Source: a bacterium | Lineage (GTDB): Bacteria; Sysuimicrobiota; Sysuimicrobiia; Sysuimicrobiales; Segetimicrobiaceae | Assembly: GCA_035308905.1 (NCBI GenBank) | Contig: DATGFS010000003.1 | Coordinates: 418-64,417 of the forward strand | DNA: 64,000 bases | Reading direction: 5' to 3' | Shown: positions 251 to 34,404 of the stretch, one piece after another | Numbering within the stretch: position 1 is the stretch's first letter | Layout of the letters: each line of letters opens with the position of its first letter | Program-made: the position numbers and the translations under genes | Notes under the pieces: model-generated | The model's input: the letters and a program-made list of their open reading frames with translations, nothing else | Databases searched by the model: none | Told to the model about the DNA's origin: nothing

Positions 251-1249
251 GTGACCGGCACGTCCTGGTTCTGCATTCGCACGGAGTCGCGGCGTCTGCC
301 GTCGTACGACATTCGCGTCGAGCGGAAGATCCTCGAAGCGAAGGGTGCCCGCGTCGAATCGATCGACATGGACGACCCGGAGGCGTTCGACCGGGCCGCG
401 CCGCTCGTCGACGCGGTGCTCCACTCCCGCGGGGTCCTCGACGCGGCGCGCATCGACCGGCTCAGCCGCTGCCGGATCATCGCCCACTACGGCACCGGCG
501 TCGACCGGGTCGACGTGGCCGCGGCCACCGCGCGCGGCATCTGGGTGACGAACGGACCGCGCTACGCCGTCGACGAAGTCTCGTCCCACGCGATCGCGCT
601 GCTGCTGGCCGTCGCCCGGAAGATCGTCGCCGCCGACCGGGCCGTCCGCGCCGGCGCCTGGCACATCAAGCCGATCGTGCCGCTCCACCGCATCGCGGGG
701 CGGACGCTCGGGCTGCTCGGCTTCGGCAATATCGCCCGGGCCACGGGCCGCAAAGGCCGGGCGCTCGGACTGGAGGTCATCGCGTACGATCCGTACCTCG
801 ACGCGTCCGTGTTCCGCGACGAAGGCGTCCGGGCCGTTGACCTGCGCGCCTGTCTCGCCGAAGCCGACATGCTCTCGATCCACCTGCCGCTCACGGAAGA
901 GACGCGGGGCATCATCTCGCGGGAGGCGCTCGGCTTGATGAAACCCGGCGCCGTGCTGGTGAACACGTCGCGCGGCCCCGTCGTCGACGAGGCCGCCCTC
1001 GTCGAGGCGCTGCGGTCGGGCCGTCTGGCCGGCGCCGGTCTCGACGTGTTCGAGCAGGAGCCGCTGCGAACGGATCACCCGCTGCTCACGCTCCCCAACG
1101 TGACGGTGTCCGGGCACATCGGCTTCTATTCGGAGGAATCGATCCAGCAGGCGCAGAGCGACGCGGCCGAGCAGGTGGTCGAAGCGATGGAAGGCCGTCC
1201 GCCCGCGTTTCTCGTCAACCGCCAGGTGCTCGAGCGGCCGGCCCGCTGA
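251..1249 (+). CDS. D-isomer-specific 2-hydroxyacid dehydrogenase family (NAD-binding) protein
   Basis: 332-aa ORF with the NAD-binding Rossmann motif GLLGFGNIARATGRKGRALGLEVIAYDP and a catalytic-domain layout typical of the D-2-hydroxyacid dehydrogenase / PGDH family. GTG start at 251 is preceded by GGAAGGTG 8 nt upstream. Confidence 0.8.
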   Translation: MTGTSWFCIRTESRRLPSYDIRVERKILEAKGARVESIDMDDPEAFDRAAPLVDAVLHSRGVLDAARIDRLSRCRIIAHYGTGVDRVDVAAATARGIWVTNGPRYAVDEVSSHAIALLLAVARKIVAADRAVRAGAWHIKPIVPLHRIAGRTLGLLGFGNIARATGRKGRALGLEVIAYDPYLDASVFRDEGVRAVDLRACLAEADMLSIHLPLTEETRGIISREALGLMKPGAVLVNTSRGPVVDEAALVEALRSGRLAGAGLDVFEQEPLRTDHPLLTLPNVTVSGHIGFYSEESIQQAQSDAAEQVVEAMEGRPPAFLVNRQVLERPAR

Positions 1250-1277
1250 CCGCCGGGACCTCAGAGGAGGGAAGATC

Positions 1278-2009
1278 GTGGCCAAGGATCGCGTGTTGTG
1301 CATCAGCGCCCATGCCGCCGACTTCTGCGTGCGCGCGGGCGGAACGCTCGCCCGCTACGCCGCGTCCGGCTCCGACGTGCGGGTGGTCGTCGTCAGCCCG
1401 GGAGCGCGCGGCGAGTCGAACGAGTTCTGGAAGGCCCGTCAAGGCAAGACGACGGAAGACGAGGTCGCGGAGGTCCGCCGGGGGGAGGCGCGCGCGGCCG
1501 CGGAGATTCTCGGCGTCGAGCTCGTCTTCTACGACTACCGCGACCAGCCGCTCACGTTCGACTACGAGCGGCTGATGCGGCTCGTCCGGGAGATCCGGAC
1601 ATTCCGGCCGCGGGTCATCATCACGCACCCCGCGAAGGAGCCGTACAACCCGGACCACACCACGACGTATGAGGCGACGATGGAAGCCGCCTACTACACG
1701 AGTCTCGCCGGCGTGGAGCCGGACCTGCCGGTGCTGGCCCCGACGCAGATCTTCGCCTGCGAGCCGACGCAGCCGCTCACGGAAATGACCGGGTTCGTCC
1801 CCGATCACTTCATCGACATCACGGATGTGATGGACGCGAAGATGCGCGCCACCGCGGAATTCCGCGCGCAGCCGTACCACGTCGAGCGCTACCGCACCCG
1901 CTCGCAGCAGCGCGGCACGCAGGCCGCCTACGTGGCCGGCGATCCCGGCATCAAGTTCGCCGAGGCGTTCCAGCGGCTGACGCCGTGGCAGGGACGGCTG
2001 TTCCCGTAG
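1278..2009 (+). CDS. LmbE/PIG-L family N-acetyl-glycoside deacetylase
   Basis: 243 aa. N-terminus VLCISAHAADFCVRAGGTL and the ITHPAKEPYNPDHTTTYEA motif (metal-binding HxDH-type) are typical of PIG-L/LmbE deacetylases. GTG start follows a GAGGAGGG RBS. Confidence 0.8.
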   Translation: MAKDRVLCISAHAADFCVRAGGTLARYAASGSDVRVVVVSPGARGESNEFWKARQGKTTEDEVAEVRRGEARAAAEILGVELVFYDYRDQPLTFDYERLMRLVREIRTFRPRVIITHPAKEPYNPDHTTTYEATMEAAYYTSLAGVEPDLPVLAPTQIFACEPTQPLTEMTGFVPDHFIDITDVMDAKMRATAEFRAQPYHVERYRTRSQQRGTQAAYVAGDPGIKFAEAFQRLTPWQGRLFP

Positions 2010-2072
2010 CGGGCGCCTAGCGAGTCGATACGCGTCCGCGGCCGCGCGCCCGCGGCACGAGGCGCCGCCCCG

Positions 2073-3218
2073 TCAGGCGGCGCGGCCCTCCTTGAAGAAC
2101 GCGATCACCGTGTCCGCCACGCGCGCCAGCATCTCGCCGGTCATGTGCGGGCCGACCGGCAGCGACATGTTCTCGCGGCACAGCCGTTCGGCGATCGGGA
2201 ACTGCCCCTCGCGCGTGCCGTACCGCGCCTGCACCGGCTCGAGCAGGTGGAGCGGCCGCGGATAGTGCACGCCCACGCCGATCTCTCGTTCGCGCAGGAA
2301 CTCCACCATCTCGTCGCGCTTCGGCGTCCAGATCGCGTAGTGCAGGTAGGACGGGTTGGCCCACGGCCTGGCCGGAGGCAGCCGGACCGGCAGCCCCGCG
2401 TCGCCGAACCGCTTCGTGTAGTACGCGGCCGCGTTCCGGCGGTGCTCCGTGAACGTCGGGAGCAGGCGCAGCTGCAACCGGCCCAGCGCCGCGGCCATCT
2501 CCGACAGGTGCATGTTGTAGCCGATCCAGCGCTGGTCGTACCAGGTCGCGTCCGTGCGCCGGATGAAGCTGACCTTCTCGTCCCGCAGCCGGCCCTGATC
2601 GCGCAGACTCGAGGCGCTCTCCGCGAGACGGCGGTCGTTGGTCACGACGGCGCCGCCGGTGCTGAACACCGTGATCATCTTGCCCGAGAAGCTGAAGAAC
2701 CCCGCGTCGCCGAGCCCGCCCGCCGGGCGGCCCTTGTACTCGGCGCCGAGCGCGTGGGCGGCGTCCTCGAGCACGAACACCTCCCGCGCCCCGGCCGCGG
2801 CGACGATCGGATCCATGTCGCACGGGAACCCGTACATGTGCAGCGGCACGACGGCGCGGGTCTTCGCCGTGATCGCGGCGGCGGCCGCGTCCGGTGAGAT
2901 GTTGCCAGTGTCCGCCTCGACCTCGACGAACACCGGCGTCGCCCCGAGCTTGACGACCGCGGCGAGGACGCCGATGTAGGCGTTCGCGGCCATGACCACC
3001 TCGTCACCCGGCCCGATGCTGCGCGCGTCGAGCGCGAGCATCGTGACCGACGTGCCGGAGTTGGCGGTGACGCCGTAGCGCATGCCGCACAGCCGCGCCA
3101 GCTCCACCTCGAAGCCCTCGGTCTCCGGCCCGCCGAACGTCGTTCCACTTTCGAGCACCTCGAGCGCTTTGCGCCGCATCTCGTCCGTGACGACCGGCGC
3201 GCGGTACGGAATCTTCAT
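2073..3218 (-). CDS. DegT/DnrJ/EryC1/StrS-family PLP-dependent aminotransferase (paralog 1)
   Basis: Begins MKIPYRAPVVTDEMRRKALEVLESG, with the internal ATG at 3218 preceded by GGAGGG; the ORF-track start at 3323 is probably too long. Contains ...YGVTANSGTSV... and the PLP-lysine region FFSFSGKMITVFSTGGAV. Its stop overlaps the start of the upstream gene (ATGA). Confidence 0.85.
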   Translation of the reverse strand: MKIPYRAPVVTDEMRRKALEVLESGTTFGGPETEGFEVELARLCGMRYGVTANSGTSVTMLALDARSIGPGDEVVMAANAYIGVLAAVVKLGATPVFVEVEADTGNISPDAAAAAITAKTRAVVPLHMYGFPCDMDPIVAAAGAREVFVLEDAAHALGAEYKGRPAGGLGDAGFFSFSGKMITVFSTGGAVVTNDRRLAESASSLRDQGRLRDEKVSFIRRTDATWYDQRWIGYNMHLSEMAAALGRLQLRLLPTFTEHRRNAAAYYTKRFGDAGLPVRLPPARPWANPSYLHYAIWTPKRDEMVEFLREREIGVGVHYPRPLHLLEPVQARYGTREGQFPIAERLCRENMSLPVGPHMTGEMLARVADTVIAFFKEGRAA

Positions 3219-4348
3219 GCCCGTCCCTCCCCGCTCCGTCCTTTTTGACGGTGCCCGCGGTAGAACTCGGCGATGCCCGCGACGACGTACTCGATCTCCG
3301 CTTCTCCGACGGCGGGATGGCACGGCAGCGAGAGAATTTCCCGGCAGGCCGCCTCGGCCGCGGGGAATTGGCCCTCACGGTAGGGCAGGCGGCCGGTGAA
3401 CGCTTCGTGCCGATGCACCGGCACCGGATAGTGCACGGACGTCGTCACCCCGCCGACCCGCAGGTGGTCCATCAGCGCGTCGCGGGCGTCGAGCCGGACG
3501 ACGTAATGTAAGAAGGTGTGCCCGGCGTACGGCAGCTCGACCGGGAGCCCGAGCGGGACGCCGGCATCGTCCAGCCGCCGCGTGTAGTCGTCCGCGTTGC
3601 GCCGCCGCTGCGCGTTCCACGCCGGCAGCTGGTCCAGCTGACAGGACGCGACGGCGGCGACCATCTCGGTGAGGCGGAAATTGTACCCGAGCACGTGCGT
3701 CTCGTAGCCGTCCCGGCGGCCGTGGTAGCGGCGGTCCACCAGGTCCTGCGCCAGCCGCTCGTCGGCCGCCGTCGCGGCGCCGCCGACCCCGCACGCGGAG
3801 ATCCCCTTGTTGCTGAACGCGAACACCCCGACGTCGCCGAGCGCGCCGGTGGGCCGGTCCTTATACCGGCCGCCGAGGGCGTGCGCGGCGTCCTCGAGGA
3901 TCCGCACGCCGCGCGGCTCGGCGAGCCGCCGCAGCGGATCCATGTCGACCGCGTGTCCGTAGCTGTGCTGCACGGCGATGGCGCGCGTGCGGGGCGAGAG
4001 CGCCGCTTCCACCTGATCTACGGCGATATTGTAGGTGCGCGGGTCGATGTCGACGAGAACCGGTGTGGCGCCGAGCTGCAGCGCGGCTTCCGGCACGCCG
4101 GCGTAAATGTTGGCCGGCATGATAACCTCGTCGCCCATCCGCACCCCGCACGCGTGCAGCCCGAGGAGCAGGCACGCGCTGCCCGACGACGCCGCGACGG
4201 CCCGGCGGGCTCCGCTCAGCGCGGCCAGCTTGGTCTCGAGCGCCTCCGTGTACGGCCCGAAGTAGTGAATCCGGCGCCGCAGCACGTCCGCCACGACACG
4301 CTGCATCTCGTCCGTCACGGGATAGGGAAACTTGTAAGGGATCTCCAT
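3215..4348 (-). CDS. DegT/DnrJ/EryC1/StrS-family PLP-dependent aminotransferase (paralog 2)
   Basis: Probable start MEIPYKFPYPVTDEMQRVVADVLRR (ATG 4348, GGAGG 11 nt upstream). An alternative in-frame start at 4372 is possible. PLP-Lys region AFSNKGISACGVGGA. Stop TGA overlaps the ATG of paralog 1 (ATGA at 3215-3218). Confidence 0.8.
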   Translation of the reverse strand: MEIPYKFPYPVTDEMQRVVADVLRRRIHYFGPYTEALETKLAALSGARRAVAASSGSACLLLGLHACGVRMGDEVIMPANIYAGVPEAALQLGATPVLVDIDPRTYNIAVDQVEAALSPRTRAIAVQHSYGHAVDMDPLRRLAEPRGVRILEDAAHALGGRYKDRPTGALGDVGVFAFSNKGISACGVGGAATAADERLAQDLVDRRYHGRRDGYETHVLGYNFRLTEMVAAVASCQLDQLPAWNAQRRRNADDYTRRLDDAGVPLGLPVELPYAGHTFLHYVVRLDARDALMDHLRVGGVTTSVHYPVPVHRHEAFTGRLPYREGQFPAAEAACREILSLPCHPAVGEAEIEYVVAGIAEFYRGHRQKGRSGEGRA

Positions 4349-4384
4349 CTTCGCCCGAACCTCCGGGGTCATCGCGCGCCTCTC

Positions 4385-6015: not shown

Positions 6016-6023
6016 GACGCCCG

Positions 6024-7289
6024 CTACCGTGCCGCGGCGGCCGGTTCGCCCGCCGCGTCCAGGCGCCCGCCGTAGAACTCTGCGACCTGGTCGAGGACGT
6101 AGTCGATCCCGTCGCCCATGTCGGGGTGAGACGGCAGGGTGACGATCTCCGTCACGATGCGGTCCGTGACGGGCCGCGGCCCCGGATCCTCGCCGGTGCG
6201 CGCGACGTACGCGGGCTCGCGGTATACCGGGTGCTTGTAGTGGATGCCGGCCCCGATGCCGCGTTCTGATAGAAAGGCGATGAGGCCGTCGCGGCGCGGC
6301 ACGCGGATCACGTAATGCAGCCACGCGTGCGAGGCCCACGGCATCTCCACCGGGACGGCCGCGCCGAGCCCGCGCGCCGTGAGGCCCGCGGTGTACCGGC
6401 GCGCGTTCTCGCGGCGGACGGCGTTATACCGATCGAGCCGGGACAGCGACACGCGGCCGACCGCGGCGAGCGACTCGCTCAGGGTGTGATTGAATCCCAC
6501 CAGGCTGAGCCGGCTGCGGTAGGCGTGCCCGCGCTCCCAGCCGTGCCGCCGCAGCAGCGACATCCGGTGGGCCCACTCCGGCTCGGACGTGAACGCCATG
6601 CCGCCCTGCCCCGCGACCGTCACGCCTTTTCGCGCGAAGCTGGTGAAGCTCGCGTCCCCGATCGAGCCGAGCGGCCGGCCCTTGTAGCGCCCGCCGAACG
6701 CGTGCGCCAGGTCTTCGATGACGAAGATGCCGCGCCGCCGCGCGAGCTCCATGAGCGGGTCCATGTCGACCGGATGCCCGTAGAGGTGGACGGCCACGAT
6801 CGCCTTCGTGCGCGGGGACAGCACCGGCTCCACCGTGCGCGCGTCCATGTTGGCGGTCGCCTCGAGCACGTCGCAGTACACCGGCTTGGCGCCGGCGTGA
6901 ATCGCGCACTCCGGCCCGGACAGGTAGCCGTTGGCGGCGCACACGACCTCGTCTCCGGGGCCGATGCCCATCGCCAGCATCGCCAGGTACAGGGCCGTGG
7001 TGCCCGACGAGACCCCCACGCCCCGCGCGACGCCGAGGTAGGCCGCGGCTTCACGCTCGAGCGCCTCGACCTCCGGGCCGTCGTAGTACACGGGACCCGG
7101 CGTGGGACGCAGCATCGCGTCCCGCATCTCGGCGTCGAACGGTGTCCACAGACAGCGGTACTTCACCGGCGTCGGCGCCCCGGCTTCTATGACATCGTTG
7201 CCGGCGTTAGTTTCATGGTTGCGCGCCGCGGAGTCGGCGCGCGGTCCGGCGTCAGCCGGTCCGCCGGCGTCCGGGTCCCCGTTATTCAC
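6024..7289 (-). CDS. DegT/DnrJ/EryC1/StrS-family PLP-dependent aminotransferase (paralog 3)
   Basis: GTG start at 7289 overlaps the stop of paralog 4 (GTGAATAA). Carries ~45-aa N-terminal low-complexity extension. PLP-Lys region FTSFARKGVTVAGQGGMAF. Confidence 0.8.
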   Translation of the reverse strand: MNNGDPDAGGPADAGPRADSAARNHETNAGNDVIEAGAPTPVKYRCLWTPFDAEMRDAMLRPTPGPVYYDGPEVEALEREAAAYLGVARGVGVSSGTTALYLAMLAMGIGPGDEVVCAANGYLSGPECAIHAGAKPVYCDVLEATANMDARTVEPVLSPRTKAIVAVHLYGHPVDMDPLMELARRRGIFVIEDLAHAFGGRYKGRPLGSIGDASFTSFARKGVTVAGQGGMAFTSEPEWAHRMSLLRRHGWERGHAYRSRLSLVGFNHTLSESLAAVGRVSLSRLDRYNAVRRENARRYTAGLTARGLGAAVPVEMPWASHAWLHYVIRVPRRDGLIAFLSERGIGAGIHYKHPVYREPAYVARTGEDPGPRPVTDRIVTEIVTLPSHPDMGDGIDYVLDQVAEFYGGRLDAAGEPAAAAR

Positions 7290-8457
7290 TGTAGAACTGC
7301 CGGATGGCCTCCGCGACGTAGCCGATATCGTTGGCGTCGAGCGTCTGGTAGCAGGGCAACGTCAGGATCGTCTGCGCGAGCCGCTCCGTGACGGGGAACG
7401 TCCCCTCCGGCGCTCCGCAGTGCGGCTGGTAGGCGTGATCGAGATGAATCGGCGTTCCGTACTCCACCATGACGTGGATGCCGCGGGATTCGAGATGGGC
7501 GCGCAGCTCGTCGCGCCGGGGCGTCTGCGCCACGAACCGCATCATCGCATGCTCCGCGTAGGGCTTCGCGGCCGGGAGGGTCAGGTCGTGGCGGAACCGG
7601 CTCAGCAGCGTGCCGTAGAGCGCGGCGTTCTCGCGCCGGCGCGCGTTCCAGCCGTCGAGATACTTGAGCTGGATGCGGCCGATCGCCGAATGGAGCTCGT
7701 TCTGCCGGTAGTTGTAGCCGACCATCTCGATCTGCTGGGCGCGGTAGATATGGTAGGCCTTGTGGCCCTCGAACCACCGGCGGCCGCGGCCGTGGTTGCA
7801 CAGCATCATCGCGGTCTCCCAGACGCGGGCGTCGGAGGTCACCATCATGCCGCCCTCGCCGCCGACCGAGATGCACTTGTTCTGCACGAACGAAAAACAG
7901 CCGGCGTTGCCGAACGTCCCGAGATACCGGCCCTTGTATTTCGCGCCGGCCGCGTGGCAGACGTCCTCCATCACTTTGAGGCCGTGCTTGCGCGCGATCG
8001 CCATCAGCGGGTCCATGTCGACCGGATGCCCGTTCATGTGCACGGGCATGATCGCCTTGGTCCGCGGCGTGATCGCGGCCTCGACCTGGGCGACGTTCAT
8101 GTTGTAGGTGTCCGGCTCGACGTCGACGAGCACCGGCTTGGCGCCGCAGAGGATGATCACGTCGGCGACCGAGGAGAACGTGTTCGGGACCGTGATGACC
8201 TCGTCGCCGGGGCCGACGCCGATCGCCAGCAGCGCGATGTGCATCGCCGCGGTGCCGCTCGACACGTTGACGGCATGCGGCGCGCCGATATAGGCGCAGA
8301 ACTCGTCTTCGAACCGCTTGCCCTCGGACTCTTCGAGCGGGAAGCTGCGAATATACTTGCCGCTTCGCAGCACACGGGTCGCCGCGTCGATCATCTCGTC
8401 GGTCATGACGGGTTTGTAGCGGATCTCTCGGACGGGTGCCTCGCGCGCCATGATCAT
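7282..8457 (-). CDS. DegT/DnrJ/EryC1/StrS-family PLP-dependent aminotransferase (paralog 4)
   Basis: MIMAREAPVREIRYKPVMTDEMIDAATRVLRSG...; PLP-Lys region FSFVQNKCISVGGEGGMM. First gene of the minus-strand operon. Immediately upstream lies an AT-richer 100-bp divergent promoter region. Confidence 0.85.
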   Translation of the reverse strand: MIMAREAPVREIRYKPVMTDEMIDAATRVLRSGKYIRSFPLEESEGKRFEDEFCAYIGAPHAVNVSSGTAAMHIALLAIGVGPGDEVITVPNTFSSVADVIILCGAKPVLVDVEPDTYNMNVAQVEAAITPRTKAIMPVHMNGHPVDMDPLMAIARKHGLKVMEDVCHAAGAKYKGRYLGTFGNAGCFSFVQNKCISVGGEGGMMVTSDARVWETAMMLCNHGRGRRWFEGHKAYHIYRAQQIEMVGYNYRQNELHSAIGRIQLKYLDGWNARRRENAALYGTLLSRFRHDLTLPAAKPYAEHAMMRFVAQTPRRDELRAHLESRGIHVMVEYGTPIHLDHAYQPHCGAPEGTFPVTERLAQTILTLPCYQTLDANDIGYVAEAIRQFYSE

Positions 8458-8594
8458 CCCCTCTCGCGGAAACGAGCAAGGAGATCGTTCGAGAAAAAGA
8501 GAAACAACCCCTCTACTATCTCCGTATTCGTCCCGAAAAACGAAATAGCATTTTGATAATGCGGCGACTATCCGCTAAGGGGGACGGCACAACA
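8458..8594. promoter_or_regulatory. AT-rich divergent intergenic promoter region between the aminotransferase operon (-) and the ABC-importer/hydantoinase operon (+)
   Basis: This is the only markedly AT-rich stretch in the first 18 kb (...gaaaaagagaaacaacccctctactatctccgtattcgtcccgaaaaacgaaatagcattttgataatg...). It contains a GATAAT -10-like hexamer and an AAGGGGGA RBS before the SBP gene ATG at 8595. Confidence 0.45.
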
Positions 8595-10338: not shown

Positions 10339-11358
10339 ATGACGCTCTACCGATACATCGCCCGGCGGGTGCTGCTGCTGTTCCCGATGCTGGTCGGGAT
10401 CACGCTGCTCAGTTTTCTCTTGTCGCACGCGGTGCCGGCCGACCCCGTGGCGGCCAACCTCGGCGATCAGGCCGCGGCCGACCCGACGATCGTCGCGGCG
10501 TTCCGGCACCACTGGGGCCTCGACCAGCCGCTGTACCGGCAGTACCTGATCTATCTCTGGAATCTCGTCCACGGGAACATGGGCATCTCCATTTCCACGC
10601 GCCAGCCGGTGCTGCTCGATCTGCGGCAGCATCTGCCGGCGACGATCGAAATCGCGGTCGCCGCGATGCTGTTGAGCCTCGTCACCGGCATCCCGCTCGG
10701 CATGCTGGCCGCGGTCAACCGCGAGCGGCCGATCGATCAGGCCGCCCGGGTCGCGTCGCTGGTCGGCGTCTCCACACCGGTCTTCTGGCTGGGGCTCGTC
10801 GCGATCGTCGTCTTCTACGCGCACCTCGGCTGGGCGCCCGCGCCGGGACGGCTCAGCCCCACGATCACCCCGCCGCCGTTTGTGACCGGATTCGTGCTCG
10901 TCGACGCGATGCTGAGCCGCCGCTGGGACGCCGCGGCCGACTGGCTGGGACACCTGGTCCTGCCGGCCGTGGTGCTGTCGTCCTACAGCCTGGGCATCGT
11001 CACGCGGATGATGCGCGGCAGCATGCTCGAGGTGCTCGGGGAGGACTACGTCCGCACCGCCCGCGCCAAAGGCGTCACGCGCTGGGCCGTCGTCGTCAGG
11101 CACGCCGCGCGCAACGCGCTGATCCCGATCATCACGATCGTCGGCCTGAGCTTCGGCGGGCTGCTCTCCGGCGCCGTCGTGACCGAGACCGTCTTCAGCT
11201 GGCCGGGCCTCGGCCTCTACGCGTTCAGCAGCGCGACGTCGCTCGACTTCCCCGCGATCATGGGCAGCGGCATCATCGTCGCCGGGGTGTACGTCCTCGT
11301 CAACCTAGTGGTCGACGTGGCGTACGCGTTCTTCGATCCGCGGATCCGGGTCGCCTGA
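10339..11358 (+). CDS. ABC transporter permease (DppB/OppB-like)
   Basis: MTLYRYIARRVLLLFPMLVGITLLSFLL... is the canonical N-terminus of BPD-transporter permeases. Confidence 0.85.
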   Translation: MTLYRYIARRVLLLFPMLVGITLLSFLLSHAVPADPVAANLGDQAAADPTIVAAFRHHWGLDQPLYRQYLIYLWNLVHGNMGISISTRQPVLLDLRQHLPATIEIAVAAMLLSLVTGIPLGMLAAVNRERPIDQAARVASLVGVSTPVFWLGLVAIVVFYAHLGWAPAPGRLSPTITPPPFVTGFVLVDAMLSRRWDAAADWLGHLVLPAVVLSSYSLGIVTRMMRGSMLEVLGEDYVRTARAKGVTRWAVVVRHAARNALIPIITIVGLSFGGLLSGAVVTETVFSWPGLGLYAFSSATSLDFPAIMGSGIIVAGVYVLVNLVVDVAYAFFDPRIRVA

Positions 11359-11360
11359 GC

Positions 11361-12248
11361 ATGGACGCGGCCATTACCACGCCCGAGGCGGCGGCCGTGC
11401 CCCGGCCGGTCCGGCGGCGCCGTCTGCTGCCCCGGCAGCTCTCCGGCTCGCCGCTGGCACTCGCGGCGCTGGCGGTCGTCGCGGGATGGATCGCCGTCGC
11501 GGTCCTGGCGCCGTCGCTCGCGCCGTACCGGCCCCTCGCCCAATCCATCGCCGGCCGCCTGCAGCCGCCCGGCCCGGCGCACTGGCTCGGCACCGATCCG
11601 CTCGGGCGCGACATCCTGAGCCGCATCCTGTACGGCGCGCGGCTGTCGATCCCGGTCGGCGTGATCGCGGTCGCGCTGGCGGTCGTCCTCGGCACGATGA
11701 TCGGCGGCACGGCCGGCTTCCTCGGCGGAGCCGCCGACGAGGCCATCATGCGGGGCACCGATCTCATGCTCGCCTTTCCCACCGTGATTCTCGCGCTCGT
11801 GATCACGGCCGCGCTCGGGGCCGGCATCCGCAACGCGATCATCGCCATCATGGTCGCGTGGTGGCCGTCCTACGCGCGGCTGGTGCGCGGGCTCGTGCTG
11901 GCGCTGCGGGACCGCGAGTACGTGCAGGCCGCGCGGGCGGTCGGCGGCTCGCGCCTCAGAATCTTCCTCCGGCACGTCCTGCCGGGCACCATCTCGCCGG
12001 TGGTGATCCTCAGCACGCTGGACGTCGGCCACGCGATCCTCACCTTCGCGTCGCTGAGCTTCCTCGGCCTGGGGCCGCCGCCGCAGATCCCGGAGTGGGG
12101 CTCGATGATCGCCGCCGGGCGCAACTACCTCGACCAGTGGTGGATCAGTACGTTTCCGGGGCTGGCGATTCTGACGCTGGTGCTGGCAATGAACGTGCTC
12201 GGCGACGGACTGCGCGACCTGCTCGATCCGCGCTTTCGATCGCGCTAG
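11361..12248 (+). CDS. ABC transporter permease (DppC/OppC-like)
   Basis: Second permease with multi-TM segments. Starts 2 nt after the previous stop. No ATPase gene follows it. Confidence 0.8.
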   Translation: MDAAITTPEAAAVPRPVRRRRLLPRQLSGSPLALAALAVVAGWIAVAVLAPSLAPYRPLAQSIAGRLQPPGPAHWLGTDPLGRDILSRILYGARLSIPVGVIAVALAVVLGTMIGGTAGFLGGAADEAIMRGTDLMLAFPTVILALVITAALGAGIRNAIIAIMVAWWPSYARLVRGLVLALRDREYVQAARAVGGSRLRIFLRHVLPGTISPVVILSTLDVGHAILTFASLSFLGLGPPPQIPEWGSMIAAGRNYLDQWWISTFPGLAILTLVLAMNVLGDGLRDLLDPRFRSR

Positions 12249-12266
12249 CGGCGAACGGGAGGCTCG

Positions 12267-14294
12267 ATGGAGACACGGCATCTCGACACGACCGGACTGC
12301 GGCTCGGCATCGAAGTCGGCGGTACCTTCACCGACTGGGTGCTGTCCCGCGGGGACCAGATCGAAGCGACGGGCAAGGTGATGTCGACCCCGTCCGACCC
12401 CGAGCGCGCGGTGCTGGCGGCGGTGTCGGAGTGCGGCGTCGCGCCGCCGGAGATCGCCGCGTTGATTCACGGCTCGACGGTCGTCACGAACGCCGTCCTC
12501 GAGCACAAGGGCGCGCGCACGTGCCTGGTGACGACCAGAGGCTTCCGCGACGTGCTGCTGATCCAGCGGCAGGCGAAGACGCGGCTCTTCGACCTCTTCT
12601 ACCGCCAACCGGAGCCGCTCGTGTCGCGCGACCACATCGTCGAGGTCGACGAGCGCATGGCGCCGGACGGCAGCGTGCGCCGGCCGCTCGCCGGCTTCGG
12701 CTTCGTCGACGAGGTCCGGCGCCTGGCCGCCGCGGAGGGCATCCAGTCGATCGCGATCTGCCTGCTGCACGCGTACGCCAACCCCGCCCACGAGGTGGCG
12801 GTCGAGGACGCGCTCGCGGCGGCGCTGCCCGGCCTCGCGATCACCCGCTCGTCCGACGTGCTGCCGCAGTTCCGCGAGTACGAGCGCACCAGCACCTGCG
12901 TGATCAGCGCCTACGCCAAGCCGGTCGTCGACCGCTATCTGTCGCGGCTCGAAGAGGGCCTGCGGGCGCGGGCGTTCCGCGGGCCCGTGACCATCGTCCA
13001 GGCGAACGGCGGCACGATCCCCGCGCACGCGATCCGCCGGCACGCCGCGAAGATGATCCTGTCCGGACCGGCCGCGGGCGTGGTCGGGGCGACCACCGCC
13101 GCGGTCGAGGCGGGGTTTCCCAACGCGATCACGTTCGACATGGGCGGCACCAGCACCGACGTGTGCCTGGTCACCGACGGCCGTCCCGGCGTGACCCGCG
13201 AGTACAGGATCGCCGGCCTGCCGCTCAACGTGCCGATGATCGACATCGCGACCGTCGGCGCGGGCGGCGGCAGCATCGCGGACGTCGACCGCGGCGGCAT
13301 TCTCAAGGTCGGACCGGAAAGCGCCGGGGCCGATCCGGGGCCCGCCGCGTACGGGAAGGGCGGCACCGCGTTCACCGTCACGGACGCCAACGTGCTGGCC
13401 GGCCGCATCCGGCCCGAGGCGTTCTTCGGCGGCCGGCTGCGCCTCGACGCCGCGGCGGCCGAGGCGGCGCTCGGATCGCTCGCCGACCGCGTCGGCCTCG
13501 AGCGGCGCGAGACCCTCGACGGCGTGCTGCGGCTGGTCAACGTGACGATGGCGCAGGCGGTGCGGCTCGTCTCGATCGAGCGCGGCTACGATCCGCGCGA
13601 CTACACGATCGTGGCCTACGGTGGCTCCGGCCCGCTCCACGCCGCGGCCGTCGCGGCCGATCTCGGGATCGCGCGCGTCCTGGTCCCGGTCAACCCCGGC
13701 CTCGTCTCGGCCTACGGCCTCCTGATCGCCGACACCCGGCAGGACTTCTCGATGACCCGGGTCACGCCGGCCGGCCGCGTCGCCGACGGCGACGTGGCCG
13801 CGGTGTTCGCGGACCTCGAGCGCCAGGCGCGCCGCGAGTTCGAGGCCTACGAGCGGCCGTGGCGCGACGTGCGCTGCCGCCGCGAGATCGACATGCGCTA
13901 CGCCGGCCAGGCGTACGAGATCAGCGTGCCGGCCGGCGGCCTGGCGGTGCCGGCGGCGGTCGAGGCGTTTCACGAAGCGCACCGCGCCCGGTACGGGCAC
14001 GCGGTGCGCGACCAGGACGTCGAAGTGGTCGGGTACCGCCTCGTCGCGGTGGCGCCGTCGCCGCTGCGGGGCATCCGTCCCGCGCCGGCAGACCGCCTGT
14101 CATCACAGCCCGGCGGGCGGGGCGCCGCCGCGCCGCGCGCCGCCGGCTACCACGCCCGGCATGAGATCGACGCCGGCGCGCGGCTCGCCGGCCCGTGCGT
14201 CGTCGAGGAGCCGACGGCGACGACGTACGTGCCCGAGGGATGGTCCGCCCGCGCGGACCGGTTCGGCAACCTGGTGCTGGAGGCCGGCGAATGA
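12267..14294 (+). CDS. hyuA: Hydantoinase/oxoprolinase family subunit A (HyuA-like)
   Basis: METRHLDTTGLRLGIEVGGTFTDWVLS... is the hallmark Hydantoinase_A N-terminus. 675 aa. Confidence 0.85.
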   Translation: METRHLDTTGLRLGIEVGGTFTDWVLSRGDQIEATGKVMSTPSDPERAVLAAVSECGVAPPEIAALIHGSTVVTNAVLEHKGARTCLVTTRGFRDVLLIQRQAKTRLFDLFYRQPEPLVSRDHIVEVDERMAPDGSVRRPLAGFGFVDEVRRLAAAEGIQSIAICLLHAYANPAHEVAVEDALAAALPGLAITRSSDVLPQFREYERTSTCVISAYAKPVVDRYLSRLEEGLRARAFRGPVTIVQANGGTIPAHAIRRHAAKMILSGPAAGVVGATTAAVEAGFPNAITFDMGGTSTDVCLVTDGRPGVTREYRIAGLPLNVPMIDIATVGAGGGSIADVDRGGILKVGPESAGADPGPAAYGKGGTAFTVTDANVLAGRIRPEAFFGGRLRLDAAAAEAALGSLADRVGLERRETLDGVLRLVNVTMAQAVRLVSIERGYDPRDYTIVAYGGSGPLHAAAVAADLGIARVLVPVNPGLVSAYGLLIADTRQDFSMTRVTPAGRVADGDVAAVFADLERQARREFEAYERPWRDVRCRREIDMRYAGQAYEISVPAGGLAVPAAVEAFHEAHRARYGHAVRDQDVEVVGYRLVAVAPSPLRGIRPAPADRLSSQPGGRGAAAPRAAGYHARHEIDAGARLAGPCVVEEPTATTYVPEGWSARADRFGNLVLEAGE

Positions 14295-15946
14295 ATCCCG
14301 TCACCCTCTCCGTCATCGGCCACGCCTTCGCGGCGACCGCGGAGGAAATGGGCGTCAACCTCTACCGCTCCGCGCATTCGACCATCGTCCGCGAGGTGCG
14401 CGACATCGCGACGGCGATCCTCGACCCCCGCGGCAACACCGTCGCGATCGCGAACTACATCCCGCAGCTGCTGAACGCGATCGACCCGGCCGCCGCGGCG
14501 ATCGCCGAGCAGTACGCGTTCGCCGAGCTGGCCGACGGCGAGGCCTTCGTCCTCAACGATCCCTTCCACGGCGGCCAGCACATCAACGACGTGCTGCTGT
14601 TCACGCCGATCCGCCTCGACGGACGGCTGCTCGGCGTCACCTGCGCGAACGTCCACCACCTCGACCTCGGCGGCGGCGCCGCGGCCAGCAACGCGCGCGC
14701 GACTGACGTCTTCCAGGAAGGCATCGTCTTCCCGCCGATGCGCATCCCGCTGGACGCCGGCTGGCGGACGTCGCCGTTCGGCAAGTTCCTCGGCGCGAAC
14801 GTGCGCGCCCCGCGCACGGTGCTGGCGGACTTCGACGCCCAGATCGCCGCCTGCCGCACCGGGGAGGCGCGGGTGCGGGCGCTCGCCCGCAAGTACGGAG
14901 CGGACGCGATCGCGGAGTTCATGACGGACGTCCAGGACTACGGGGAGCGCATCTCCCGCCAGGCGATCGGCGCGATTCCGGACGGCGAGTACCGCGGCGA
15001 GGCGTTCATGGAGGACGACGGGACGGGCGCCGGCCCGTTCTACGTCCGCGTGGCGGTCCGCATCGCCGGCAGCGAGATGACGATCGACTTCGCCGGCACC
15101 GACGGACAGGCCAAGGGCTTCATCAACGTGCCGTGGGGGTCGACGCTCTCGAGCGTGCGCACCACGGTCGTGGCCATCCTCGGCGTCACGCACATGCTCG
15201 TCAACGCCGGCAGCATGCGGCCGGTGCACGTCACGGCGCCGCTCGGCTCGCTCGTCAATCCGCGCTGGCCGGCCGCGACGCGGGCGCGCACCAGCGCCTG
15301 CTACAAGATCTTCGACGCGATCAACATGGCGCTCGCGCCGGTGCTGCCGAAGCAGGTCACGGCACCGGGCTTCGACGCGCAGACCGGGATCACGTTCGGC
15401 CAGCGCGCGGGAGGCCACACCCGCATTCTCTCGGAGGTGCTCGGCGCGGGGAACGGCGCGCTGTGGTGCCAGGACGGCGCCGACGGCATGATCATGCACC
15501 TCACCAACGGCCACAACACGCCCGTCGAGTCGGTGGAGATCGAGTTCCCGTTCCTCGAGGTGCTGCGGTACCGCCTCGTCCCGGACTCAGGCGGCGACGG
15601 CGAGTACCGCGGCGGACTCGGGATGGAGCGCGCCTACCGGATCCTCGCGGACGACGTCACCTTCGGATTGCACTCCGACCGCCACCGTCACGGCGCGCCG
15701 GGCCTCTTCGGGGGCGGGACCGGGGCCCCCGGGGCCTGCGTGCTCGTTCGCGACGGGACGGCGCGCGTGCTCGGGTCCAAGGTGCACGAAGCGCTGCGCG
15801 CGGGGGATCGCCTGGTCGTGCGGGCGGGCGGCGGCGGCGGCTACGGACCGGCGGAGCGCCGCCCCGCGGAGCGTCTGGACAAGGACACGCGGGAGGGCCG
15901 GCAGACGCGGGGCGGAGCCGTCCCGGATCCGACGGAAGGGCTCTAA
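14291..15946 (+). CDS. hyuB: Hydantoinase/oxoprolinase family subunit B (HyuB-like)
   Basis: Begins MNPVTLSVIGHAFAATAEEMGVNLYRSAHSTIVREVRD (Hydantoinase_B N-terminus). Its ATG overlaps the hyuA stop (ATGA at 14291-14294). Its stop codon overlaps the stop of the convergent aminotransferase paralog 5. Confidence 0.85.
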   Translation: MNPVTLSVIGHAFAATAEEMGVNLYRSAHSTIVREVRDIATAILDPRGNTVAIANYIPQLLNAIDPAAAAIAEQYAFAELADGEAFVLNDPFHGGQHINDVLLFTPIRLDGRLLGVTCANVHHLDLGGGAAASNARATDVFQEGIVFPPMRIPLDAGWRTSPFGKFLGANVRAPRTVLADFDAQIAACRTGEARVRALARKYGADAIAEFMTDVQDYGERISRQAIGAIPDGEYRGEAFMEDDGTGAGPFYVRVAVRIAGSEMTIDFAGTDGQAKGFINVPWGSTLSSVRTTVVAILGVTHMLVNAGSMRPVHVTAPLGSLVNPRWPAATRARTSACYKIFDAINMALAPVLPKQVTAPGFDAQTGITFGQRAGGHTRILSEVLGAGNGALWCQDGADGMIMHLTNGHNTPVESVEIEFPFLEVLRYRLVPDSGGDGEYRGGLGMERAYRILADDVTFGLHSDRHRHGAPGLFGGGTGAPGACVLVRDGTARVLGSKVHEALRAGDRLVVRAGGGGGYGPAERRPAERLDKDTREGRQTRGGAVPDPTEGL

Positions 15947-17103
15947 GCGCCGCCGGCCGCGGACGAGGTCCGCGCGCCGAAGTAGCCGATCACCGCGTCC
16001 GCCACGTAGGCGAGGTGTTCGTCCGTCATGTGCGGGCCGCACGGCAGCGACAGCGTCTCGCGGCAGAGCCGCTCGGCCACGGGAAACTGTCCCGGACGCG
16101 TCCCGTACTGCTCCATCATCGGACGCGCCAGGTGCAGCGGCGTCGGATAGAGCGCAATGGCCTCGATCCCGCGCGCGGCCAGCGCCTCCCGCAGGGCCTC
16201 CCGCTCCGGACTCCAGACGGCGTAATGCAGGTACGATGGCGCGGCCCACGGCCGCGACGGCGGGAGCCGCAGCGGGAGCGCGGCGTCCTGGAAGCGCGCC
16301 GTGTAGTACGCGGCCGCCCGGCGCCGGTGCGCGACGAACGCGGGCAGCGCCCGGAGATCCAGCCGCGCCAGCGCGGCGCACAGCTCGGTCATGTGCATGT
16401 TGTAGCCGACCCAGCGCTGGTCGTACCACGTCGTGTCCGTCCGGCGGACGAAGCTGATCCGCTCGTCACGCACGCGCCCCTGGTCCCGCAGGCTGGCGAG
16501 CCCTTCCGCGAGGTCCCGGTCGTCCGTCACCGCGCCGCCTCCGGGGCCGAACGCGCTGATCATCTTCCCGGAGAAGCTGAAGAACCCCATGTCGCCGATG
16601 CCGCCGGCGCGACGGCCCTTGTACTCTGCGCCGAGCGCGTGCGCCGCGTCCTCGATCACGAAGAGCCCGTGCCGGCGCGCCGTCTCCATGATCGGATCCA
16701 TGTCGCACGGAAAGCCGTAATCGTGGATCGCGACGACCGCGCGGGTGCGCGGCGTCACCGCGGCCGCGACGGCGTCGGGCAGGATGTTCGACGTCTCGGC
16801 GTCCACCTCGGCGAACACCGGCGTGGCGCCGCGCTTCACGACCGCCGCGAGCACCCCCACGTAGCCGTTGGCCGGGAGGATGACCTCGTCGCCGGAACCG
16901 ATGCCCTTCGCGTCGAGGGCGAGCAGGCAGACGGACGTGCCGGAGTTCGCGGTCACGCCGTAGCGGCGCCCGCACCAGGCGGCCAGCTCGGCTTCAAACC
17001 GCTCGGTCTCTTCCCCGCCGTACGTCTTGCCGGTCTCGAGGACCTCGAGCGCCTTCTGCCGCTGCTCGGGCGTCGGGGTCATCTTGCGGTTTGGAATGTG
17101 CAT
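15943..17103 (-). CDS. DegT/DnrJ/EryC1/StrS-family PLP-dependent aminotransferase (paralog 5; close paralog of paralog 1)
   Basis: Starts MHIPNRKMTPTPEQRQKALEVLETG (ATG 17103), collinear with paralog 1 (MKIPYRAPVVTDEMRRKALEVLESG). It shares ...YGVTANSGTSV..., ...YGFPCDMDPI... and FFSFSGKMIS with paralog 1, and the two appear roughly 70% identical by eye. Confidence 0.85.
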   Translation of the reverse strand: MHIPNRKMTPTPEQRQKALEVLETGKTYGGEETERFEAELAAWCGRRYGVTANSGTSVCLLALDAKGIGSGDEVILPANGYVGVLAAVVKRGATPVFAEVDAETSNILPDAVAAAVTPRTRAVVAIHDYGFPCDMDPIMETARRHGLFVIEDAAHALGAEYKGRRAGGIGDMGFFSFSGKMISAFGPGGGAVTDDRDLAEGLASLRDQGRVRDERISFVRRTDTTWYDQRWVGYNMHMTELCAALARLDLRALPAFVAHRRRAAAYYTARFQDAALPLRLPPSRPWAAPSYLHYAVWSPEREALREALAARGIEAIALYPTPLHLARPMMEQYGTRPGQFPVAERLCRETLSLPCGPHMTDEHLAYVADAVIGYFGARTSSAAGGA

Positions 17104-17166
17104 GCGCGCACCACCGGTGAATGAGAGTCGGGACGTCATACGGCTTCGATGAGCGCGGCGCGGGTC

Positions 17167-18549
17167 CTATAGCGGCGCGGTCGGTCCGCGGCGCAGCCAC
17201 CGGCCGCGGCCGCGCGCGGCGGTGACCCCGGTCCGGTCCAGCACGATCTCCCCGCGGCTGATCGTATAGACCGGCCATCCGCGGACGGCGCGGCCGTCGT
17301 ACACGGAATACCCGGCGCGGGAGTGCATCGACGTGCCATCCACCGTCCGGGACGCCTCGGGGTCCCAGATCACCACGTCGGCATCCGACCCGACCGCGAT
17401 CGTCCCCTTCCGTGGATAGAGCCCGAAGAGCTTCGCCACGTTCGTGCTGGTCAGCTCGACGAACCGGCCGAGCGAGATCCGGCCGGCGCGGACGCCCTCG
17501 GAAAAGAGCATGGGCATCAGCGTCTCGAGGTCGGCGACGCCGTTCCGCACCGTCGCCACGGTGAGCGACGGATCGAGCTTCTGCCGCAGCGTCCACGGAG
17601 CGTGGTCGGTGCAAACGCTCTGGATCTCGCCGCCGGCGAGGCCGGCCCAGATCGCCGCCACGTCGGCCGCCTCGCGAAGCGGCGGGGCGCCGGTGTACTT
17701 CGGGCCGTCCGGCTCCGCGAAGCGCTCCCGGGTCAAGTACAGATAGAGCGGCCGCGTCTCGACGTACACGCGGAGCCCGTCCGCGCGCGCGGCGCGGCAG
17801 CGGCCGAGCGCCGCGGCCGACGACAGGTGCACCACGTAGATCGGCGCGCCGGTGGCCTGCGCGAGCGCGATCGCCCGCTCGGTGGCGACGGACTCCGTGT
17901 AGACCGGGCGGCTCTCCGGGTAGTGCGCGAGGCCGTCGCGGCCCTCTTCGGCGAGGCGCGCCTTGAGAAACCGCTGCAGCCCGCCGTCCTCGCAGTGCAT
18001 CAGTGTGATCAGGCCGGTGTCCGCCGCCGCGCGCATCGCGCGAAGATACCCGTCGATCTCGGCGTCGAAATTGTCGCGGCTCATGAAGAGCTTCAGGCTC
18101 GTGTGCCCCTGCGCCGCCAGCCCGGCGACCTCGTCGACGGCGCCCGCCGTCGGGTCGGTCAGGACGGGATGCAGGATGAAGTCGACGGCCGCGTCGCGCG
18201 CGGCCGCCTCGAGATCGCGCGCGAGCGCGTCCCGCAGACGCTCGCCCGCCCACTGGAACGTCATGTTGCCGATCGTGGTGATGCCGCCCGCGATGGCGGC
18301 CTGCGATCCGGTGAAGAAGTCGTCGACCCACAACTCGCGGCCGGGCTCCGGCCGCGCGGCCTGGCTCAGATGGACGTGGACATCCACCCCGCCCGGGAAC
18401 ACGTAAAGCCCCGCCGCGTCGATTTCCGTGCGCCCGCGCATCTCGCCGCCGAGCTGCGCGATCTTCCCGCCCCGCACGCCGACGTCGGCCGCTCCGTGCG
18501 CGGCGGCGGTGACGACCGTCCCGCCGCGGATTACGAGGTCACATTCCAC
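17167..18549 (-). CDS. Cyclic amidohydrolase (dihydropyrimidinase/D-hydantoinase/allantoinase superfamily)
   Basis: MECDLVIRGGTVVTAAAHGAADVGVRGGKIAQLGGEM...GLYVFPGGVDVHVHL is the classic N-terminal metal-binding HxH motif of this amidohydrolase family. 460 aa. Confidence 0.8.
   Translation of the reverse strand: MECDLVIRGGTVVTAAAHGAADVGVRGGKIAQLGGEMRGRTEIDAAGLYVFPGGVDVHVHLSQAARPEPGRELWVDDFFTGSQAAIAGGITTIGNMTFQWAGERLRDALARDLEAAARDAAVDFILHPVLTDPTAGAVDEVAGLAAQGHTSLKLFMSRDNFDAEIDGYLRAMRAAADTGLITLMHCEDGGLQRFLKARLAEEGRDGLAHYPESRPVYTESVATERAIALAQATGAPIYVVHLSSAAALGRCRAARADGLRVYVETRPLYLYLTRERFAEPDGPKYTGAPPLREAADVAAIWAGLAGGEIQSVCTDHAPWTLRQKLDPSLTVATVRNGVADLETLMPMLFSEGVRAGRISLGRFVELTSTNVAKLFGLYPRKGTIAVGSDADVVIWDPEASRTVDGTSMHSRAGYSVYDGRAVRGWPVYTISRGEIVLDRTGVTAARGRGRWLRRGPTAPL

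Positions 18550-33309: not shown

Positions 33310-34404
<1,095 letters not shown>

Follow-up and report, generated by a model that had tools for sequence, protein, structure and literature searches.

A conserved cluster of DegT-family aminotransferases and amide hydrolases that may serve nitrogen scavenging in uncultured bacteria

Overview

We analysed a 64-kb stretch of contig DATGFS010000003.1 (hereafter the window) from a bacterium of the Sysuimicrobiota. Its left-hand end, up to position 18,549, carries five complete genes and the start of a sixth for DegT-family aminotransferases, together with genes for an importer, ring-opening enzymes and amide hydrolases. This gene set is a conserved functional unit and not a chance juxtaposition. 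Our favoured reading, to which we give about even odds (a probability of roughly 0.5), is that the cluster serves a conserved, IclR-associated nitrogen-scavenging catabolism of an imported, amide-rich compound that bears carboxylate groups. The breakdown of a cyclic amide or ureide is favoured because the partners of the aminotransferases are an importer, an IclR regulator, ring-opening enzymes, and amide and carbamoyl hydrolases. The most likely substrates are a cyclic ureide, a hydantoin, a lactam or a peptide-like amide.

A preliminary description of this DNA had also judged the partners to be catabolic, and the importer with its family-5 solute-binding protein (SBP5), the regulator and the hydrolases bear this out. 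For the salvaged compound it had offered either a cyclic amide or a poly-aminated cyclitol, sugar or aminoglycoside. Our evidence favours the first; a hydratase-like protein in place of the expected deacetylase, the lack of sugar genes, and partners suited to carboxylate-bearing amides or ureides speak against the second. The enzyme families of the cluster are known ones, the pathway they form is uncharacterised, and the substrate class of the DegT clade is probably new. In the literature we found no description of the cluster, of PDB entry 7b0d, or of DegT genes linked to a hydantoinase or dihydropyrimidinase.

The cluster aminotransferases form a separate clade

All five complete DegT proteins of the window matched PF01041 over their full length, with scores of 312-378 bits against a gathering score of 19.8 bits. 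The lysine that carries pyridoxal 5'-phosphate (PLP) and the aspartate that binds the pyridine nitrogen were invariant across 21 aligned cluster DegTs, these five included, as the preliminary description had read for the lysine. The paralogs share 37-49% identity, except for g3 and g14 (68%; gene names as in Table 1), and by this measure appear to have diverged anciently. Their identity to solved members of the family is roughly 40%. None reached an NCBIfam equivalog cutoff among the PseC, ArnB, WecE, DesI and LegC models, and the best score was 265 bits to PseC, for which the cutoff is 423.5 bits.

We determined how these proteins are related to other DegTs with a neighbour-joining tree (200 bootstraps) of 126 sequences filtered to less than 70% identity. 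The tree contained the window paralogs, their relatives from other copies of the cluster, 100 ordinary DegTs and five solved enzymes (7b0d, DesV, QdtB, ArnB and perosamine synthase), the last of which were transcribed from HMMER alignments. The ordinary DegTs, which served as outgroup and as context control, were among the matches listed in a broad genome scan with a profile of g8 homologs, made with generic back-translated motifs. The listed matches were all ordinary DegTs, at 35-44% identity, and gave no information on synteny. All cluster-associated DegTs fell into one clade in 185 of the 200 bootstraps (92%), with the 100 ordinary DegTs and the five solved enzymes outside it. One subclade includes g8, the sixth DegT (DegT6) and the fusion proteins described below (193/200), and the other includes g7, g4, g3, g14 and a type of 372 amino acids (aa; 189/200).

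The clade also has its own sequence signature. At the third position ahead of the PLP lysine, 105 of 106 ordinary DegTs have an aromatic residue and none of 20 clade members does; the position is deleted in 11 of the latter and holds valine in seven. In the column of QdtB Lys219, lysine or arginine occurs in 87 of the 106 ordinary DegTs and in five of the 20 clade members. A lysine of the neighbouring subunit contacts the phosphates of the nucleoside diphosphate (NDP) sugar in Pcryo_0638 (PMC8040287), and we assume that it is equivalent to the Lys219 column.

Gene context separates the two groups as well. The neighbours of 68 ordinary DegT loci were checked for SBP5 and for the hydantoinase subunits HyuA and HyuB only, and not for sugar genes; neither was found near any of these loci, whereas each was present at 9 of 13 clade loci. 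Neither the window cluster nor the annotated genes of its relatives included a nucleotidyltransferase, dehydratase or glycosyltransferase.

Like the NDP-sugar and aminocyclitol enzymes PseC, ArnB, DesV, QdtB and BtrR/StsC, the cluster proteins have a complete fold-type I DegT domain with the PLP lysine and the aspartate. They differ from them in forming a separate clade, in lacking the conserved aromatic residue, in having mostly lost the basic residue of the Lys219 column, in the 13-residue insertion of the g8 group, and in never having been seen beside sugar-nucleotide genes. By phylogeny and gene context, the cluster DegTs are not ordinary O-antigen or NDP-sugar enzymes, and their clade seems to have left sugar-nucleotide chemistry.

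Two insertions were seen in the window paralogs. The 13 residues in g8 and its orthologs (the RRWFEGHKAYHIYRAQQIE region, around residues 222-242 of g8) are additional to the solved 7b0d, DesV and QdtB and sit in the loop that holds the Lys219 column. The N-terminus of g7 (7206-7289) contains a low-complexity insertion of about 28 aa, GPADAGPRADSAARNHETNAGNDVIEAGA, which is present in the 100%-identical copy on the related contig L090 and absent from the 94%-identical ortholog on contig L001 (393 aa).

The gene set is conserved among uncultured relatives

A tblastn survey covered 24 loci with g8 orthologs at 62-100% identity. At every one of them g8 adjoins at least one other DegT gene. The amidase with its small open reading frame (ORF), HyuAB, the pair of a PIG-L-fold protein and a 2-hydroxyacid dehydrogenase, DegT6, an asparaginase, an IclR regulator and a short-chain dehydrogenase/reductase (SDR) recur across the loci. 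The preliminary description had allowed that the paralogs might cluster with O-antigen enzymes, or that synteny might not be conserved in relatives. Given the separate clade, the contrast in gene context and the 24 syntenic loci, neither is the case.

About 64 homologs of g8, with identities of 62-99%, are present in the database. Every carrier is a metagenome contig or a metagenome-assembled genome (MAG), and the nearest named relatives are Armatimonadota MAGs. An exact match to the amidase (P0121) identified L090, on which the cluster proteins are 100% identical to those of the window. Beyond the point that corresponds to the left edge of the window, L090 continues with DegT6 (396 aa), the asparaginase, the IclR regulator, the SDR and a second SBP5. 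The cluster thus extends past the left window edge. The preliminary description had set its limits at 251 and 18,549; the inventory between them is essentially right, while the left boundary is not, since the sixth DegT already begins at position 79 and the cluster continues in the identical L090.

Gene content varies among the relatives. Some of the 24 loci lack g4, g7, g14 or the D-hydantoinase; g4 is missing or fragmentary in some relatives, and g14 is restricted to the closest ones. One lineage has a LIV-type ATP-binding cassette (ABC) system in place of the SBP5 system. Related clusters contain short pieces of DegT genes that encode 73-97 aa (L003:12948-13169, L006:14382-14621 and L120:3115-3408); these look like pseudogene remnants and suggest that the gain and loss of DegT paralogs is ongoing. 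In a relative at 84% identity, a creatininase-family cyclic amidohydrolase (PF02633; L097:1418-2398) and a NUDIX gene flank the cluster, and the creatininase would add a ring-opening amidohydrolase to the accessory set.

More distant relatives of g8, at 46-52% identity, are fusions of 683 aa in which an N-terminal CN_hydrolase domain (carbon-nitrogen hydrolase, nitrilase superfamily) precedes the DegT domain. Their loci contain SBP5, two permeases without an ATPase, two or three DegTs and various hydrolases, among them separate CN_hydrolase genes, a RutB/BiuH-like isochorismatase, M20, an alpha/beta hydrolase, HyuA, and creatininase or AstE/AspA. The fused hydrolase domain scored 157 bits to N-carbamoylputrescine amidohydrolase, 143 to beta-ureidopropionase, 94 to D-carbamoylase and 93 to the omega-amidase Nit2. 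The identification of the fusion partner as an omega-amidase was downgraded because the domain is nearer to the decarbamoylases than to Nit2. Among the genes annotated in the contexts of the cluster clade there was no glycosidase or sugar kinase, no gene of inositol catabolism and no core enzyme of natural-product biosynthesis.

The amidase is related to GatA and coupled to a small partner

The best solved match of the amidase g6 was GatA (302 bits), followed at a distance by AtzE (6c62, 170 bits). It remained below all curated cutoffs: 351.9 against 481.1 bits for GatA (TIGR00132), and 281.5 against 461 and 266.5 against 425.75 for the two AtzE models NF006631 and TIGR02715. The catalytic Lys-Ser-Ser triad is retained. 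In Staphylococcus aureus GatA the substrate-binding residues are Tyr309, Arg358 and Asp425 (bioRxiv 10.1101/733030). With these residues GatA binds glutamine, Arg358 by its carboxylate. The equivalent of Tyr309 is a glycine in g6, that of Arg358 is retained and that of Asp425 is lost. Because the arginine is kept and the other two are gone, the amidase is likely a GatA relative that is not a glutaminase and that acts on a carboxylate-bearing amide other than glutamine. The cluster contains no GatB.

The 78-aa partner g5 has 12 homologs in 1.8 billion representatives. It is always translationally coupled to the amidase, and it is conserved downstream of it in many relatives. Neither the protein itself (at E-values up to 10) nor its set of 13 homologs had a Pfam match to AtzG or GatC. 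A profile search against PDB sequences and an hhalign comparison with an S. aureus GatC sequence gave no match either. Its AlphaFold (AF2) model, with a mean predicted local distance difference test (pLDDT) score of 78.5, shows a two-helix hairpin (residues 3-14 and 21-39) with an extended proline-rich tail. A Foldseek search with this model returned nothing with an E-value below 2, and GatC chains were among the weak matches. Its size, coupling and modelled two-helix-plus-tail shape are compatible with a subunit of the AtzG/GatC type.

The preliminary description had called g6 and g5 an AtzE/AtzG-like pair, which now holds as an analogy only. As in AtzE-AtzG (a 1,3-dicarboxyurea amidohydrolase with a GatC-like subunit) and in GatCAB, an amidase-signature enzyme with the Lys-Ser-Ser triad is followed by a coupled ORF of 60-80 aa. 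Unlike in those systems, the amidase falls below the family cutoffs, the partner is unmatched to AtzG or GatC by sequence, profile or fold, GatB and the cyanuric-acid genes are missing from the cluster, and of the three residues that bind the substrate in GatA just one is retained.

A related pair lies outside any such cluster. On a 4.9-Mb contig (L091:10001-11570), a 63%-identical amidase overlaps the gene of a 60-aa partner, with no DegT nearby; the pair follows SBP5 and permease genes and lies near M55 (D-aminopeptidase family) and M42 peptidases. Since this pair occurs without a nearby DegT, the amidase and the small ORF are an independent module.

Importer, ring-opening enzymes and a GalB-like protein

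The best solved matches of the SBP5 were a peptide-binding protein (8upi, 135 bits) and AapF (117 bits). Opp/Dpp-type ATPases are absent from the cluster, although SBP5 and two permeases are present, and the same layout without an ATPase occurs at L001, L006, L007, L088 and L119. The sole ABC ATPase identified among the scanned window genes is of the MalK type (33310-34404).

HyuA and HyuB have complete Pfam domains. Their nearest curated family is the caprolactamase CapA/CapB, to which they scored 486.7 and 225.1 bits against cutoffs of 1000 bits, and their solved relatives are an N-methylhydantoinase (245 bits) and caprolactamase (180 bits). By these similarities we assign HyuAB to the family of ATP-dependent hydantoinases, oxoprolinases and lactamases. 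The second ring-opening enzyme, g15, exceeded the cutoff of the D-hydantoinase/dihydropyrimidinase model TIGR02033 (404.1 against 393.25 bits), in agreement with its initial reading as dihydropyrimidinase-like. Its metal-ligand motifs (HxH, Lys, His, His and Asp) can all be read in the translation.

The PIG-L-fold protein had been described as an LmbE-type N-deacetylase, and this assignment has to be revised. Its best solved match, over the full length, was the 4-oxalomesaconate hydratase GalB (5cgz; 143 bits, 38.6% identity), while deacetylases reached at most 70 bits and 29% identity. Its motifs AHAAD and NPDH resemble AHSAD and NYDH of GalB, where deacetylases have HPDD and HPDH, and it scored far below the cutoffs of the BshB, Mca and MshB models. 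We predict from these comparisons that it has GalB-like hydratase activity and is not of the deacetylase type. GalB, the 4-oxalomesaconate or 4-carboxy-2-hydroxymuconate hydratase of gallate catabolism, shares with it the AH(S/A)AD and N(Y/P)DH motifs; the substrate of the cluster protein is probably another unsaturated oxo-acid. GalA, GalC and GalD neighbours were not found among the genes annotated in the window cluster and on L090. Enzymes of the GalB type act on 2-oxo or enol polycarboxylates, which suggests that an organic acid is among the compounds handled by the cluster.

The gene next to it, which adjoins the GalB-like gene in all relatives surveyed, encodes a 2-hydroxyacid dehydrogenase related to phosphoglycerate dehydrogenase (PGDH) and glyoxylate reductase. 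It falls below all NCBIfam equivalog cutoffs and would interconvert 2-oxo and 2-hydroxy acids. The reading of GalB-type hydratases as LmbE deacetylases, corrected here, is a transferable mis-annotation.

A proposed catabolic route

The substrate, the order of the steps and the need for five to six DegTs are what we infer from the enzyme families, residues, operon structure, synteny and clade described above. The twin-arginine-exported SBP5 and the two permeases would import the compound, with an ATPase encoded elsewhere. The ring of the compound would then be opened by the ATP-dependent HyuAB, the D-hydantoinase or both. In the resulting N-carbamoyl or omega-amido acid, the terminal amide or ureido group would be hydrolysed by the GatA-like amidase in the hold of its 78-aa partner. 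This would leave a primary amine, and the asparaginase outside the window may contribute. Members of the dedicated DegT clade would transaminate the freed amino group or groups to oxo groups. Finally, the 2-oxo or enoyl acids so formed would be converted further by the GalB-like hydratase and by the D-2-hydroxyacid dehydrogenase, together with the SDR outside the window. The DegTs g8 and g7, and likewise g4 and g3, are co-translated, and each pair could form a heteromer or catalyse successive steps.

A more specific version of this proposal is tentative, and we put it below even odds. It states that a DegT clade that has moved off sugar-nucleotide chemistry, possibly working as co-translated heteromeric pairs, is the deaminating core of an undescribed catabolic pathway whose substrate carries several amino or amide groups. 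Many uncultured soil lineages, represented by Armatimonadota-like and Thermomicrobiales-like MAGs, would have this pathway, which would be fed by ring opening through HyuAB or the hydantoinase and by a GatA-like amidase with a new small subunit.

Several points weigh against the proposed catabolism. It singles out no single substrate compound, and it gives no reason for five to six DegT paralogs at 37-49% identity. Some relatives do without the D-hydantoinase g15 or the DegTs g14, g4 and g7, so that the core may comprise fewer reactions than we propose. To our knowledge, every biochemically known DegT acts on keto-sugars, inososes or related carbocycles and not on amino acids, and the cluster clade has no biochemically characterised member. 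The tree that defines the clade was built by neighbour joining, and its sample is biased and includes no more than five characterised enzymes. A role of the signature positions in nucleotide binding is assumed from QdtB, whose Tyr183 and Lys219 reportedly anchor the dTDP-sugar. The 78-aa protein is no more than a candidate for a stabilising subunit of the GatC/AtzG kind.

Alternative explanations

The best of the alternatives, which we nevertheless regard as unlikely, is that a sugar or cyclitol with several amino groups, such as an aminoglycoside-, rhizopine- or opine-like compound, is degraded or salvaged. The DegTs would catalyse the reverse of the transaminations by which aminocyclitols or amino sugars are made, and acyl or carbamoyl substituents would be taken off by the hydrolases. 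This explanation would keep the DegTs on keto-sugars or inososes, on which all characterised members act, and several amino positions would suit several paralogs. In addition, the SDR that adjoins the cluster resembles glucose 1-dehydrogenase/KduD-type enzymes (210.8 bits against a cutoff of 215), and opines are also taken up by family-5 binding proteins such as AgaA and AccA. The idea of an aminoglycoside or cyclitol substrate loses its second pillar, however, since the supposed N-deacetylase lacks HPDD and HPDH and is GalB-hydratase-like. It is further weakened because no sugar-handling gene was seen: glycosidases, sugar kinases and genes for the breakdown of inositol or inososes are all missing from the annotated context genes. 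The domain fused to the distant g8 relatives is of the decarbamoylase type, the BtrR-type aminocyclitol aminotransferase (144 bits) is farther from g8 than the NDP-sugar enzymes are, and every sampled sugar aminotransferase falls outside the clade.

Ranked behind it, and with still less in its favour, is glutamine- or asparagine-dependent transamination with removal of the by-product. Here the DegTs would aminate an imported oxo compound, the amidase would be an omega-amidase on 2-oxoglutaramate or 2-oxosuccinamate, and HyuAB would open the lactam of 2-oxoglutaramate, with the oxo acids left to the 2-hydroxyacid dehydrogenase. An amidase that keeps the arginine and has lost the Tyr309 and Asp425 equivalents could suit 2-oxoglutaramate, the asparaginase is conserved in the cluster, and HyuAB belongs to the oxoprolinase family. 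The fusion of an aminotransferase to a CN_hydrolase also recalls pairs of glutamine transaminase and omega-amidase. Against this, the fused domain is nearer to decarbamoylases than to Nit2, the importer and the IclR regulator indicate breakdown and not amination, and there would be no role for the D-hydantoinase or for the creatininase, RutB/BiuH-like and M20 partners.

It is improbable that the cluster makes a new aminated compound, whether a natural product or a component of the cell envelope. Natural-product clusters often contain DegTs, and several enzymes of the tailoring type occur together here. The annotated contexts, however, contain no nonribosomal peptide synthetase, polyketide synthase, cyclase, glycosyltransferase, nucleotidyltransferase or ATP-grasp enzyme, the uptake system shares an operon with HyuAB, the regulator is of the IclR type, and the gene content is variable, with DegT pseudogene fragments.

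That ordinary NDP-sugar aminotransferases for O-antigen or lipopolysaccharide lie by chance beside unrelated catabolic genes is rejected by synteny, phylogeny and context: their best NCBIfam matches are indeed PseC-, ArnB- and WecE-type models, but the scores are far below the curated cutoffs, the arrangement is kept in 24 loci and echoed in distant lineages, the clade is separate (92% bootstrap), the context differs (0/68 against 9/13) and the near-universal aromatic residue is lost.

Relation to known catabolic routes

The proposed breakdown of an amide-rich compound has parallels in two groups of known routes. The first comprises the hydantoinase/carbamoylase route and the reductive pyrimidine route, the latter with dihydropyrimidinase, beta-ureidopropionase, beta-alanine transaminase and a semialdehyde reductase. 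These routes also join ring opening, carbamoyl or amide hydrolysis, transamination and an oxidoreductase. The decarbamoylase-type CN_hydrolase fused to DegT in relatives, and the match of g15 to TIGR02033, are further points in common with them. These routes use class III or IV transaminases, whereas the cluster has DegTs, five to six of them, beside a GatA-like amidase with a small partner and a GalB-like hydratase. Neither a dihydropyrimidine dehydrogenase nor a hydantoin racemase was seen.

The second group comprises the creatinine/N-methylhydantoin and caprolactam routes, in which an N-methylhydantoinase or CapAB is followed by an amidase or an omega-transaminase. As in these, HyuA and HyuB stand beside amide hydrolases and transaminases, and relatives of the cluster carry creatininase and isochorismatase-type amidases. 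HyuAB is nevertheless far below the CapA/CapB cutoffs, sarcosine oxidase and adipate-semialdehyde dehydrogenase are missing, and the transaminases are of another family. Because of its other transaminase family, its GatA-like amidase with an unclassified partner and its GalB-type hydratase, the cluster belongs to neither group of routes.

Gene organisation of the locus and its surroundings

Genes were called from third-position GC content and checked with Pfam and NCBIfam, and their junctions were inspected base by base (Table 1). Four DegTs (g3, g4, g7 and g8), the amidase g6 and the 78-aa ORF g5 form one overlapped minus-strand operon, as first described. Besides the ATGA overlap of g6 and g5, the same overlap joins g4 to g3 and HyuA to HyuB, and g8 and g7 overlap in GTGAATAA. 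The partial DegT at the left window edge translates as MATRTVAFRPVVDQEMKDAACRVLDS, which matches the N-terminus of the DegT6 proteins (394-396 aa) of L001 and L090. The inventory by Pfam also agrees with the preliminary description for the 2-hydroxyacid dehydrogenase, the SBP5 with its twin-arginine motif, the two permeases without an ATPase and HyuA/HyuB, and for the absence of a nucleotidyltransferase, 4,6-dehydratase or glycosyltransferase from the cluster in the Pfam and NCBIfam annotation.

Table 1. Genes of the aminotransferase cluster in the window.
Gene or protein	Position	Strand	Family matches and remarks
Sixth DegT (DegT6), first 26 codons	79-1	-	g8-like subclade; cut by the left window edge
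D-isomer-specific 2-hydroxyacid dehydrogenase, 332 aa	251-1249	+	PF02826, PF00389
PIG-L-fold protein, GalB type	1278-2009	+	PF02585
DegT g3, 381 aa	2073-3218	-	PF01041, 332 bits; last gene of the minus-strand operon
DegT g4, 385 aa	3215-4372	-	PF01041, 315 bits
g5, amidase partner, 78 aa	4385-4621	-	ATGA overlap with the amidase stop
g6, amidase-signature (AS-family) amidase, 465 aa	4618-6015	-	PF01425, 380 bits
DegT g7, 421 aa	6024-7289	-	PF01041, 312 bits; GTG start; 8-nt overlap with the end of g8
DegT g8, 389 aa	7282-8451	-	PF01041, 378 bits; first gene of the operon; anchor of the conserved cluster
SBP5, family-5 solute-binding protein, 548 aa	8595-10241	+	PF00496; twin-arginine motif SRRDLLRL; divergent from g8
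Two Opp/Dpp-type ABC permeases	10339-11358, 11361-12248	+	PF00528, PF19300, PF12911
HyuA	12267-14294	+	HyuAB domains PF01968, PF05378, PF19278, PF02538; importer operon
HyuB	14291-15946	+	ATGA overlap with HyuA; importer operon
DegT g14, 386 aa	15943-17103	-	PF01041, 327 bits; alternative start at 17139; downstream of the D-hydantoinase
g15, D-hydantoinase/dihydropyrimidinase, 460 aa	17167-18549	-	TIGR02033

The window as a whole has a G+C content of about 70%. Within the cluster the values are 0.66-0.73, similar to those of the remaining window, and housekeeping genes (ArgS, acetyl-CoA carboxylase and glycogen genes) follow directly after it. The label of an accessory island, given to the cluster at first, is rejected on this composition.

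At its right boundary the cluster meets cell-envelope genes. Two tandem M23 peptidase paralogs (18566-19444 and 19569-20483, minus strand) have near-identical C-terminal domains, and one of them has a LysM domain as well. Past this pair lies a gene for a protein with SLH and BsuPI domains (21925-23286).

The divergent intergenic region between g8 and SBP5 (8452-8594) is AT-rich and contains a weak 5-8-5 palindrome, TTCGTCCCGAAAAACGAA, at 8527, which could be a candidate operator. A search for a shared operator motif in the divergent intergenic regions gave nothing convincing, and the region between DegT6 and the 2-hydroxyacid dehydrogenase had no match to TTCGTCCCGAAAAACGAA.

Elsewhere in the window, genes of type IV secretion or conjugation encode a VirD4/TraG-type coupling protein (50003-52033, minus strand) and a TraC/VirB4-like ATPase (54662-57154, minus strand). 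In the region from about 50 to 62 kb, the GC content falls to 0.66-0.71 while the AT skew climbs to values of +0.09 to +0.22; this region is probably an integrated conjugative element. Near the conjugation genes are those for an MrfA-like DEAD-box helicase with an MZB zinc-binding domain (47065-49377) and a LonC/LonB-like AAA protease (59153-61858).

Implications

It is routine to annotate enzymes of the DegT/DnrJ/EryC1/StrS family as aminotransferases for sugars or aminocyclitols and to take them as markers for glycan and antibiotic biosynthesis. If the clade described here transaminates non-sugar amines, a whole branch of the family, known to date from metagenome contigs and MAGs only, would have to be re-annotated. 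The transaminases and the pair of amidase and small subunit would then also be new enzymes for biocatalysis in hydantoinase-type processes. The tentative, more specific version of the proposal, if true, would give the DegT family a new substrate class and would represent a new route of organic-nitrogen mineralisation. For the poorly known soil phyla that carry the cluster, the transamination of non-sugar amines by this clade would mean a new route of organic-nitrogen scavenging.

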